From the sequence record MZ170040.1: a DNA stretch of 64,000 nt, one strand, 5' to 3'. This document shows positions 46,198 to 47,996 of this stretch, piece after piece. The translations under genes were made by a program, and so were the position numbers. Within the stretch, counting starts at the first letter, position 1; every line of letters begins with the position of its first letter. Below the pieces are notes generated by a model. That model was given only the letters and a program-made list of their open reading frames with translations, did not search any database and was not told the origin of the DNA. Source of the DNA: Escherichia phage vB_EcoM_FJ1.

Positions 46198-46216
<19 letters not shown>

Positions 46217-46686
46217 TCGGTGATAAAATTATTTAAATTTTGAGTATATTTCTTTTCATCAAAAATCTTTTGCTGCCTACGTAAACGCCATGGCATTTCA
46301 ATGAACGTGTACCATATCCCAGATAATATTGCTGCTGTAAAAATATTAACAAGTATGGTTAAAATAATCCAATCTCCCGTTCTGTCTACTGGACTTTCTC
46401 CAAAGAAGCAAAATACAAATGATGTCACAGGAAAACTAATAATATACCACAGAATCATAATCTTATCTGTGAACCAATCAGTGTTCGTTAATTTAGCGCG
46501 ACCATTATGAATACACACGAATTTATCATCTGTTGCAGTAGATGGCTTAACTGGTTGATATCCCATTCTAAACTCCCTAATCAGCAAATTTTTCATATCT
46601 TCGGAACAGCCATTCCAGTCAACTCTATCAACTGAAATGCCATCATCCCCATCATCTAAATCATACCAGCGAGTTTTTAAAATCAT
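46198..46686 (-). CDS. membrane protein (paralog family, member 1)
   Basis: 162 aa with TM segments; C-terminal ...[11 protein letters not shown]. Confidence 0.45.
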
Positions 46687-47045
46687 TTGATTTTCCTACA
46701 ATCATTCACGAATTCTTTCATTGATTCATTTTCAATATAAGACATGTAGTTATTATATTCTTTTAATTGTATTTTGTAATCCTTTTTTCTTTGCCAATTT
46801 ATTTTAAAATTATCATAATGAAAATATAAAATAATACCAAAGAATGAAAATAATGAAATTGCTATAGTATAATGAAGTTCACTCCAAACTTCTGTTATAT
46901 TTACTGTGCCGTCGATGTTTAAAATAAGACAGTCAATTAACAATCCAAAAAGACTACCCGCAAGAGCTGCAGCCAACGCCACAGCAAAAATTAAAAATGA
47001 CTCAGAAAACGAATATTTGACTTTATTTAGTTTTGGCTTTTGCAT
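46683..47045 (-). CDS. membrane protein (member 2)
   Basis: 120 aa with TM segments; C-terminal ...KEFVNDCRKIK. Confidence 0.45.
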   Translation of the reverse strand: MQKPKLNKVKYSFSESFLIFAVALAAALAGSLFGLLIDCLILNIDGTVNITEVWSELHYTIAISLFSFFGIILYFHYDNFKINWQRKKDYKIQLKEYNNYMSYIENESMKEFVNDCRKIK

Positions 47046-47440
47046 CGTGATTCCTTAACAAATTTCATAATTTCATCAAATTCATACGCGGCAAGTTTAA
47101 GCTGATGTTCCTTTTTAATCTTTTTACACTGTGCTTTCCAATCACGTACACGTTTACGATAATGTCTTCCTTGATACCAATATCCTATCCAATTTACAGG
47201 TACTAATAAAAGTGGAACTATTAATGGAAGAATTAGCATTAACACAAGTATTTCGCCAGAATCAATATCAGTCATAACATCTAAAACACCTCCAATAATC
47301 AATAGAATTACAAATGATATGAGTATAACAGGACCTATTAACACATCAGTAGAAATTATCTGACGCTTTAATTCATACTTTAAGGGTTTACTTGGAAGAT
47401 ACATTGATGGCTTTGACATATTCTCTACATTCCTTAACAA
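47027..47440 (-). CDS. membrane protein (member 3)
   Basis: 137 aa with TM segments; C-terminal ...MKFVKESRCKSQN. Confidence 0.45.
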   Translation of the reverse strand: MLRNVENMSKPSMYLPSKPLKYELKRQIISTDVLIGPVILISFVILLIIGGVLDVMTDIDSGEILVLMLILPLIVPLLLVPVNWIGYWYQGRHYRKRVRDWKAQCKKIKKEHQLKLAAYEFDEIMKFVKESRCKSQN

Positions 47441-47996
47441 ATTTTTCTAATAATAAATCGCTTTCAAAATTGGGATTTTCTACGAATTTATCAAAAAGAT
47501 CATCAACAATATTCAAGATATTTCTTTTACTAAGAATACGTTTATTTTCATGTTTCGTTTCAGAATCAACTATAAGAGTAAAGAAATATTTCTTTCCCTG
47601 AAATTTTACCGTAGTATCAATATAGAATAAATTTGACTTTTGTAAATTACGTTTAAACCATGCGTCACTTAAACTATAAACACCGAGATAATCAAAATCG
47701 TCGTTTAAATAACATACTGTCCATTCAGGAGAAATGAAATCAGTAAATTCAACATCAAAATCACACGTCAATGAATGAATTGATTCAATACTGTTAATAA
47801 GTATTCCAGGACGTATTAAAGACTTTTTACCTCTGGAAAATCTTCCAGAAAGACTTTCATCAGTTTCATATGAAGAACCCCAATAATAATTACGTCCTTC
47901 TGCCATACGTTTAAGAGCATTTAGTAATTGGTCTGGAACATCAACTTGTCGTTGGAATTCTTCAAACATTGAATTGAAATCACTTTGCATTTTCAT
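47388..47996 (-). CDS. hypothetical protein (member 4, soluble)
   Basis: 202 aa; C-terminal ...EKFVKECREYVKAINVSSK. Confidence 0.45.
   Translation of the reverse strand: MKMQSDFNSMFEEFQRQVDVPDQLLNALKRMAEGRNYYWGSSYETDESLSGRFSRGKKSLIRPGILINSIESIHSLTCDFDVEFTDFISPEWTVCYLNDDFDYLGVYSLSDAWFKRNLQKSNLFYIDTTVKFQGKKYFFTLIVDSETKHENKRILSKRNILNIVDDLFDKFVENPNFESDLLLEKFVKECREYVKAINVSSK

Follow-up and report, generated by a model that had tools for sequence, protein, structure and literature searches.

What do four adjacent but differently built phage proteins have in common if all of them end alike? The question is raised by the orthologues of T4 genes e.2, e.3, e.4 and e.5 in Escherichia phage vB_EcoM_FJ1 (sequence record MZ170040.1), of which a stretch of 64,000 nucleotides was analysed (the window; all positions are those of this stretch). 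Roughly half of the genes of T4 are without a function, and the e.2-e.8 block is among them. A first-pass annotation of the window had described the four genes as a tandem paralog family with a conserved ending, F-[VI]-x-E-[CS]-R; three of the products were predicted to be membrane proteins and one to be soluble, and the shared cytoplasmic tail was thought to recruit a common partner. The analysis presented here finds the shared ending to be conserved across T4-like phages with the core F-[IV]-x-x-C-R, and suggests that it may be a docking helix at the inner membrane.

Identity and annotation of the four genes

The window is a segment of a Tequatrovirus (T4-like) genome, and the region 45700-48700 is 95-97% identical to that of many Escherichia, Shigella and Yersinia T-even phages. 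On the minus strand the order is denV, e (lysozyme), nudE, then e.2, e.3, e.4 and e.5; e.6, e.7 and e.8 lie upstream. The comparison with T4 e.2-e.8 proposed in the first-pass annotation was made against the annotated T4 record, and it identifies the four genes as the e.2-e.5 orthologues, in the same order and with the same overlaps. The order e.6-e.5-e.4-e.3-e.2-nudE-e and the overlapping gene ends are conserved in the annotations of T4, Lutter and fPS-2, and tblastn found the orthologues in more than 500 Tequatrovirus records. Identity to the window proteins is 92% for T4 e.4 and 96% for T4 e.5. The older GenBank names are msp7 (e.2), msp6 (e.3), msp5 (e.4) and msp4 (e.5).

All four genes are on the minus strand. 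The e.2 orthologue (46198-46686) encodes an intact protein of 162 amino acids (PHROG 2203, E 3.7e-79). The e.3 orthologue (46683-47045) encodes 120 amino acids (PHROG 2330, E 3.5e-59); its stop codon and the start codon of e.2 share an ATGA, and the protein also has a weak full-length match to PHROG 2604, which is the family of e.4. The e.4 orthologue (47027-47419) encodes 130 amino acids from an ATG (MSKPSMYLPSK...; PHROG 2604, E 1.2e-70) and overlaps e.3 by 19 nucleotides and e.5 by 32. The ATG at 47419, which is the start annotated in T4, is most likely the correct one, over the mechanically listed TTG at 47440. The e.5 orthologue (47388-47996) encodes a soluble protein of 202 amino acids (PHROG 2607, E 4.7e-109). 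Searches of the four proteins against Pfam, NCBIfam and PADLOC gave no match. The Pfam families listed for the T4 e.2-e.5 proteins are PF26896, PF26873 and PF26876 ('Phage_T4_Y06P'), the last being e.5 by precomputed assignment. In some GenBank records e.3/e.4 appear under the name 'sulfurtransferase' or 'DNA primase', and e.6 is called a 'host specificity protein'; these labels are unsupported by any profile library.

The e.2 gene is intact at 162 amino acids in the window and in many other Tequatroviruses. In T4 it is frameshifted, to 102 amino acids (T4 record segment L001, 5480-5970), and in Yersinia phage fPS-2 (segment L004, 4811-5298) it is likewise broken by a frameshift. In both phages the FITECRKLK tail is still encoded, in another frame.

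The shared C-terminal motif

Written as F-[VI]-x-[ED]-[CS]-R, the motif is found 3 residues before the C-terminus in e.2 and e.3, 5 before it in e.4 and 11 before it in e.5. It reads FITECR in e.2 (F154-R159; codons at 46210-46227, minus strand), FVNDCR in e.3 (F112-R117; 46695-46712, minus), FVKESR in e.4 (F120-R125; 47045-47062, minus) and FVKECR in e.5 (F186-R191; 47424-47441, minus). The C-terminus of e.3 is KEFVNDCRKIK and that of e.4 is MKFVKESRCKSQN, which has a Cys at position +6, counted from the Phe; the last helix of e.5 (residues 180-196) bears EKFVKECREYVKA. Among 555 six-frame stop-to-stop segments of at least 40 amino acids the strict motif has five matches, four of which are these genes. 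The fifth (20577-20894, minus; FINDSR) is in an open segment of 105 residues, 23 before its end; it is noise to a tail hidden Markov model (HMM) and is probably a chance match.

Since the pattern had been defined after the fact, all pairs of tails were compared without it. The best ungapped 6-mer BLOSUM62 score was taken between the last 20 residues of each of 115 putative window genes, giving 6555 pairs. The pair e.2-e.3 ranks first, e.2-e.5 second, e.3-e.5 fifth and e.4-e.5 twelfth, so the motif which the first-pass annotation had seen in the sequence is real and not due to chance. Only one other pair is comparable, tied with e.2-e.5 at rank 2, and it serves as a positive control. It joins 5425-8121 and 18111-18668 (both minus), which by their known tails we take to be the T4 gp43 DNA polymerase (ending SLDFLFG) and the gp55 late sigma factor. 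The recovery of this pair, unsupervised, among the best validates the test. On the 6-mer alone, e.2-e.4 (rank 266) and e.3-e.4 (rank 423) are not significant; e.4 joins the group through e.5 and through the profile comparisons described below. Leave-one-family-out tail HMMs of 20 columns recovered e.2 and e.5 and missed e.3 and e.4, and are thus a weak detector.

Conservation among T4-like phages

Following e.2, e.5 and e.6 into distant phages yielded 35 motif proteins from 11 lineages: Tequatrovirus, Mosigvirus, Gaprivervirus, Kanagawavirus, Karamvirus, Biquartavirus, Ceceduovirus, Pseudotevenvirus, a Klebsiella phage, LQ5, and a metagenomic contig with 28% guanine plus cytosine. These lineages are related, so the proteins do not count as 35 independent events. 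The distant phages include Gaprivervirus SP18, LQ5, Kanagawavirus PEi20, Karamvirus myPSH1140, and Pseudotevenviruses EBPL and RB43; the hosts covered are Escherichia, Klebsiella, Enterobacter, Edwardsiella and Aeromonas.

The aromatic position is Phe in 33 of the 35 proteins and Trp in the other two, and the next position is Ile or Val in 34. Position +4 is Cys in 27 and otherwise Val, Ile, Ala, Met or Ser; position +5 is Arg in 30 and Lys in four. Position +3 is acidic in 20 (Glu in 18), with Tyr, Ser, Met, Gly, Gln, Asn and Lys as replacements, and an acidic residue is present at -2 in 19 tails. The motif as first written is therefore present in all four window proteins but is too narrow, as only Tequatrovirus and Mosigvirus conserve its acidic position. 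What the lineages have in common is the core F-[IV]-x-x-C-R, usually with an acidic or polar residue before it, a hydrophobic residue at -3, and Lys or Arg after it. The Mosigvirus orthologues, which are 38-50% identical to the window proteins, keep the motif (FIMECR in e.5, FVKEIR in e.4, FIKECRK* in e.3, where * is the stop), and a further Mosigvirus protein with two transmembrane (TM) helices, from open reading frame ORF133c, ends NFIKECRGK*. The F, C, R and K of e.3 do not vary among 46 sequences.

Wider searches added little. A scan of IMG/VR with the e.4 profile returned only six loci. In a collection of 5.8 billion proteins a search with e.3 found only relatives of more than 70% identity, and a census of the motif by word index gave only fragments of the same families, which does not establish its absence elsewhere, for example from host proteins.

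The conserved Cys could itself be functional, as an intermolecular metal, redox or covalently modified site of assembled tails. It occupies +4 in 27/35 proteins, always next to Arg, and the Tequatrovirus and Mosigvirus e.4 proteins that lack it have an invariant Cys at +6 (SRC / IRC). However, eight of the 35 have Val, Ile, Ala, Met or Ser in its place, and no Cys is nearby in the e.4 of Gaprivervirus and of the Klebsiella phage. A lone Cys cannot chelate metal, and the cytoplasm is reducing. The replacements fit a small hydrophobic position on one face of a helix, and a Cys-based function is considered unlikely.

A near-C-terminal motif might also mark its carriers for degradation or processing, as a protease degron or as a site of the gp21 type, and in this way time the removal or trimming of early proteins. 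The T4 prohead protease gp21 cleaves by the rule (I/L)-x-E. The F-I-x-E of the Tequatrovirus and Mosigvirus copies fits this rule, and resembles the N-terminal capsid-targeting sequence MKTYQEFITEA found in the window at 44270-44743. Against this, Glu occupies +3 in barely half of the proteins, as given above, and the conserved F, I/V, C and R are not used by such signals. None of the carriers is a head component; they are early proteins of the membrane or cytosol, and in T4 they fall into different protein classes (e.4 and e.5 early, e.2 middle, e.3 late). Unlike ssrA- or MuA-type ClpX tags, the motif has anything from 0 to 25 residues after it; a ClpX/ClpA-type degron was rejected because there is no fixed distance to the free C-terminus. 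A role in degradation or processing thus has a low probability in our estimate.

Overlapping translation signals and a DNA repeat

All of the tails overlap the ribosome-binding site of the next gene and often its start codon. The Shine-Dalgarno sequences are AGGAAA in the tails of e.2 and e.3 and AAGGAA in those of e.4 and e.5, and the Mosigvirus genes are alike. The tail codons that double as Shine-Dalgarno sequences are AAG GAA, AGG AAA, AGA GAA and CGA GGA. In e.4, AAG GAA is the Shine-Dalgarno sequence of e.3 and CGA TGC holds the e.3 start codon. The EYVKA codons of e.5, which lie 3' of the motif, double as the start of e.4 (ATG 47419).

It could be argued that the likeness of the tails is a by-product of these signals, which would force purine-rich codons on each gene end (K-E as AAGGAA, R-K as AGGAAA). 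The downstream signal does lie inside all four tails, in Mosigvirus too; the EYVKA residues of e.5 are invariant while they also encode the e.4 start, and the rare Arg codon AGG is used exactly where a Shine-Dalgarno sequence is needed. However, the Shine-Dalgarno sequence is found at either +2/+3 or +5/+6 while the amino-acid register is unchanged, and the residues F, I/V and C are not purine-rich. Across lineages the motif Arg is encoded by AGG, AGA, CGA, CGT and CGC, Phe by TTT and TTC, Cys by TGT and TGC, and Ile/Val by five codons. The e.5-type motif may also lie 9-25 residues before the stop codon. The differing codons and the shifting Shine-Dalgarno register show that selection is on the amino acids and not on the overlapping ribosome-binding sites. 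The overlap accounts for codon choice but not for the motif; as the cause of the motif it was rejected, and we hold it to be very improbable.

The start of nudE, the gene that follows e.2, is ambiguous. The T4-style ATG at 46216 (MQEIKMKT...) is inside the e.2 motif codons (GA-ATG-C). The alternative ATG at 46201 (MKTLSAG..., as in phage Lutter) has a better-placed AGGAAA Shine-Dalgarno sequence, formed by the R-K codons of e.2, and an ATGA overlap with the e.2 stop.

An identical 16-nucleotide word, AAATTTGTTAAGGAAT, is common to the tails of e.4 and e.5; it encodes K-F-V-K-E and occurs at 47050-47065 and 47429-47444 (minus) as a direct repeat 379 bp apart. It has exactly these two occurrences in the window, where 2e-4 would be expected by chance. 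The repeat could reflect gene conversion, and it would permit an in-frame deletion of e.4. Phage LQ5 is without e.4.

The repeat also bears on whether the tail is a functionless relic, left by tandem duplication or by gene conversion of neighbouring genes. The genes are adjacent and overlapping, e.3 and e.4 are paralogous, and the region is plastic, with a gene content between e.3 and e.2 that varies between genera. Against a relic, the remainders of these proteins are at 26-50% identity or unrecognisable, but four motif positions are 77-97% conserved in 11 lineages, in different codons, and the motif is also found on mutually non-homologous proteins. The retention of the motif amid such divergence, and on non-homologous proteins, indicates purifying selection; we give the relic explanation very little credence.

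Membrane topology and paralogy

By Kyte-Doolittle profiles, e.2, e.3 and e.4 have two TM helices apiece and e.5 lacks them, which bears out the earlier prediction of three membrane proteins and a soluble one. The e.2 protein has an N-terminal cytoplasmic domain (residues 1-75), TM helices at about 76-96 and 106-130, and a basic tail of 32 residues. In e.3, a basic N-terminus is followed by TM helices at about 16-42 and 57-76 and a cytoplasmic tail of 44 residues; in e.4, the TM helices are at about 25-47 and 57-79 and the cytoplasmic tail has 51 residues. The inter-helix loops are 9-14 residues long, and acidic in the three window proteins. Counts of Lys plus Arg for the four hairpin proteins are 4-5 in the e.3/e.4 N-termini, 0-1 in the loops and 9-15 in the C-terminal tails. 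By the positive-inside rule, both ends of the hairpin proteins are predicted to be cytoplasmic, tails included, as had been supposed of the tails from the start.

The proteins were compared with hhalign, using alignments that included distant members; reversed-target controls scored 0.3-9.6% probability. Comparison of e.3 with e.4 gives 87.7% over 41 columns, which span the cytoplasmic tail in full, starting with the basic stretch behind the second TM helix and ending with the motif, and e.3 with Mosigvirus ORF133c gives 77.8% over 38 columns. The C-terminal half of e.2 matches e.3 at 84.3% over 18 columns; here the tail alone aligns, so the case is weaker. Intermediates link the families: Kleb_120, a Klebsiella-phage protein, is matched along its full length by the HMMs of e.3 (E 2.8e-6) and of e.4 (E 2.6e-16), and a metagenomic protein is also matched by both. 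On these profile comparisons e.3 and e.4 are classed as true paralogues, and the C-terminal half of e.2, which has an extra N-terminal domain, probably belongs to the same family; all three are two-helix membrane hairpins with a tail of 32-51 residues. The description of the locus as a tandem paralog family can thus be retained for the membrane proteins (78-87.7%, far above the controls) but not for e.5, which forms a separate soluble family.

As a helix, the motif region is amphipathic, with F and C at i/i+4 and hydrophobic residues at -3 and +7. It has a hydrophobic moment of 0.5-0.7, with a mean hydrophobicity near or under zero (-0.55 to +0.02). An amphipathic C-terminal helix may bind lipid, and the tail could be an in-plane membrane-targeting helix of the MinD/FtsA kind, which would bring e.5 to the membrane and lay the e.2-e.4 tails on the bilayer. 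The aromatic and aliphatic residues followed by R/K would suit such a helix, as would the occurrence of the same tail on the soluble e.5 and on membrane proteins. However, with so low a mean hydrophobicity these moments fall under the Eisenberg surface-seeking boundary. The frequent acidic residues at -2 (19/35) and +3 (20/35) disfavour binding to the anionic lipids of E. coli, and a conserved Cys-Arg pair is atypical of known membrane-targeting helices. Lipid binding is accordingly rated as improbable, though less so than a degradation signal or a Cys-based site.

The soluble protein e.5 and other soluble carriers

An AlphaFold2 (AF2) model of e.5 shows an alpha/beta domain and a C-terminal helical hairpin, with the motif in the last helix (180-196). 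Confidence in the model is moderate (predicted local distance difference test score, pLDDT, 63.9; predicted template modelling score, pTM, 0.64). By hhalign, the e.5 tail matches e.2 at 61% over 13 columns, e.3 at 37% and e.4 at 0.4%. In sequence, then, e.5 is unrelated to e.2-e.4, and what it has in common with them is the last 13-18 residues or so. An exhaustive search of 1.84 billion representatives with the e.5 HMM gave six hits, all of them phage e.5 relatives. Regarding its function, Foldseek found no significant match in the PDB and a PDB profile search was empty. A possible identity as a Pol-beta-type nucleotidyltransferase or small alarmone synthetase was considered and dropped, as a nucleotidyltransferase fold with the hG[GS]...DxD catalytic residues was not found.

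Further small soluble proteins bear the motif, namely Kleb_102, Karam_131 and the product of a 96-amino-acid open reading frame of PEi20; none has a detectable relation to either family. The presence of the motif on non-homologous scaffolds argues for a portable functional peptide.

The upstream gene e.6 and transcription

The gene e.6 (48038-48631, minus; 197 amino acids) lies just upstream of the four genes. In all the lineages examined, an e.5-like or e.5-positioned motif gene comes after a full-length e.6. The two adjoin directly except in Ceceduovirus Assk, where a masked pseudogene-like feature intervenes. The e.5-positioned gene is then followed by 0-4 hairpin or small proteins which also have the motif. 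Between genera e.6 is 65-88% identical, against 26-50% for its neighbours. The protein is all-helical, and a single-sequence AF2 model of moderate confidence (pLDDT 74.7) has three long helices. At the sequence level a relationship to PspA/IM30/ESCRT-III was rejected: the hhalign probability to PspA is 0.3%, and a PDB profile search was negative. From its synteny, e.6 is the most plausible candidate for a hub to which the tails might bind.

A GC-rich hairpin (GGGGCTTCGGCCCC on the transcribed strand) is present at 48017-48032 (minus), between e.6 and e.5; related phage records carry it as a terminator or stem-loop. Just upstream of e.6 is an early-type promoter-like site, TTTACA-17-TATAAT (48674-48702, minus; 11/12 matches), and record L13089 annotates -35/-10 signals at this place. 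An early transcript that continues into e.5-e.2-nudE probably starts from this site.

Expression and dispensability in T4

That the reading frames are expressed, on which the first-pass annotation depended, is borne out in T4. The RNAs of e.2-e.6 are classed as early, and the proteins have been detected: e.4 and e.5 as early, e.2 and e.6 as middle, and e.3 as late (PMC9697503 supplements). Knock-down of e.2-e.6 by CRISPRi-ART had no fitness effect in a laboratory host, K-12 (PMC11879866 supplement), which agrees with the state of e.2 as a pseudogene in both T4 and fPS-2. Any function of these genes must therefore be conditional.

Proposed role of the motif

The reading that we favour, and to which we assign about an even chance, treats the tail as an amphipathic docking helix at the C-terminus, by which these proteins would be joined, at the cytoplasmic face of the inner membrane, either to one partner or among themselves. 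In such a scheme e.3, e.4 and probably the C-terminal half of e.2 would be inner-membrane hairpins with both ends in the cytoplasm and a basic helical tail. All four proteins would have one short amphipathic helix in common at their ends, phi(-3)-x-x-F-[IV]-x-x-C-R-[K/R] (phi being hydrophobic), with F, I/V and C on one face. The helix would act as a short linear docking motif for one common cytoplasmic partner, with e.6 as the most plausible hub, and either that partner or e.5 would thereby be tethered to the inner membrane early in infection. Alternatively, the four proteins may assemble with each other through their tails. Candidate roles for the group are membrane-associated host takeover, exclusion and counter-defence. 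The motif, its conservation, selection at the protein level, the paralogy of the membrane proteins, the cytoplasmic location (by rule), and expression and dispensability in T4 are established; that the helix makes a protein-protein contact, and with whom, we infer.

Several points weigh against docking. The e.3 and e.4 tails escaped the leave-one-out HMMs, which means that the signal rests on only some 6-8 residues. The motif ends anywhere from 0 to 25 residues before the C-terminus and is not a strict C-terminal peptide. As a hub, e.6 is implicated by synteny alone, and the terminator-annotated hairpin separates it from e.5. The neutral knock-down and the e.2 pseudogenes also count here.

A more specific version, which we put forward tentatively and consider unlikely as a whole, takes e.6, e.5, e.4, e.3 and e.2 as one conserved and hitherto unrecognised membrane-associated module: the all-helical, possibly BAR-like e.6 would be a scaffold which fast-evolving adaptors recruit to the inner membrane or organise there, each of them docking through the F-[IV]-x-x-C-R helix. 

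At least four of these proteins, with scaffolds that are unrelated, retain the 6-residue tail beside the highly conserved e.6, so that what was a row of hypothetical proteins becomes a single testable module. Already known are the genes themselves, annotated as hypothetical and placed in separate Pfam and PHROG families, and short shared C-terminal phage motifs as a kind; this instance, on membrane anchors, is new. The shared tail, the e.3/e.4 paralogy and the association with e.6 were not found in any annotation or paper searched, and a literature search found no paper text that treats e.2-e.5 functionally.

A second family defined by its C-terminus

In other genera the region between e.3 and e.2 holds a second family that is defined by its C-terminus. 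It consists of small soluble proteins, encoded in tandem, which end in W-[VI/Y]-S-S-S-x-x-C* (for example GAWVSSSALC*, GGWVSSSSEC* and KIWYPSSC*). Mosigvirus, Gaprivervirus, LQ5, Kanagawavirus and Karamvirus have these genes as insertions; this Tequatrovirus window has none of them. Their loci are L003 4787-5581, L011 158-1426, L012 534-1573, L013 229-1303 and L022 4799-5325.

Comparison with known systems

Database families (PHROGs 2203/2330/2604/2607) keep e.2-e.5 separate, with function unassigned; the comparisons made here join them by their ends.

Among T4 sequence signals there is a local likeness to the capsid-targeting sequence (MKTYQEFIAE, which gp21 cuts after I-x-E): E-F-I-[AT]-E in the one resembles [NE]-x-F-I-x-E in the other. 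That sequence stands at the N-terminus of proteins packaged in the head and has no C-R pair, whereas the e.2-e.5 motif is C-terminal. The resemblance between E-F-I-T-E and the N-F-I-T-E-C tail is regarded as superficial, and the position of the motif, together with the inconstant Glu at +3 (18/35), led us to reject a capsid-targeting or gp21-substrate reading. Two open reading frames of the window begin in the capsid-targeting manner (44270-44743, minus, MKTYQEFITEA...; 49849-50142, minus, MKSYAQFLNEA...).

In architecture, small bitopic or hairpin membrane proteins, or a soluble protein, with a short conserved cytoplasmic helix that would bind a conserved helical partner recall two bacterial inner-membrane systems, the FtsZ C-terminal peptide with FtsA/ZipA and PspB/PspC with PspA. 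The analogy is one of layout; these systems have no sequence relationship to e.2-e.6.

The closest parallel is found within T4. The C-terminal tails of gp43, gp55 and gp33, (S/T)LDFL(F/Y), bind the gp45 sliding clamp. As in e.2-e.5, a short hydrophobic or amphipathic C-terminal peptide is carried by otherwise unrelated proteins of one phage. The peptides themselves differ (F-[IV]-x-x-C-R against LDFLF), and the (S/T)LDFL(F/Y) consensus is absent from the e.2-e.5 tails. The carriers differ as well: those of the clamp tails are replication and transcription factors, whereas e.2-e.5 are early, non-essential and mostly membrane-anchored. The clamp tails dock their carriers on one hub, and the same is proposed by analogy for the e.2-e.5 tails. 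If a partner is found, T4 would have a second hub-and-tail system besides the sliding clamp, and there would be a handle on what T-even phages do early at the inner membrane; if the module built on e.6 is true, it would be a hub-and-peptide system like the sliding clamp and its tails, but placed on the host membrane early in infection.

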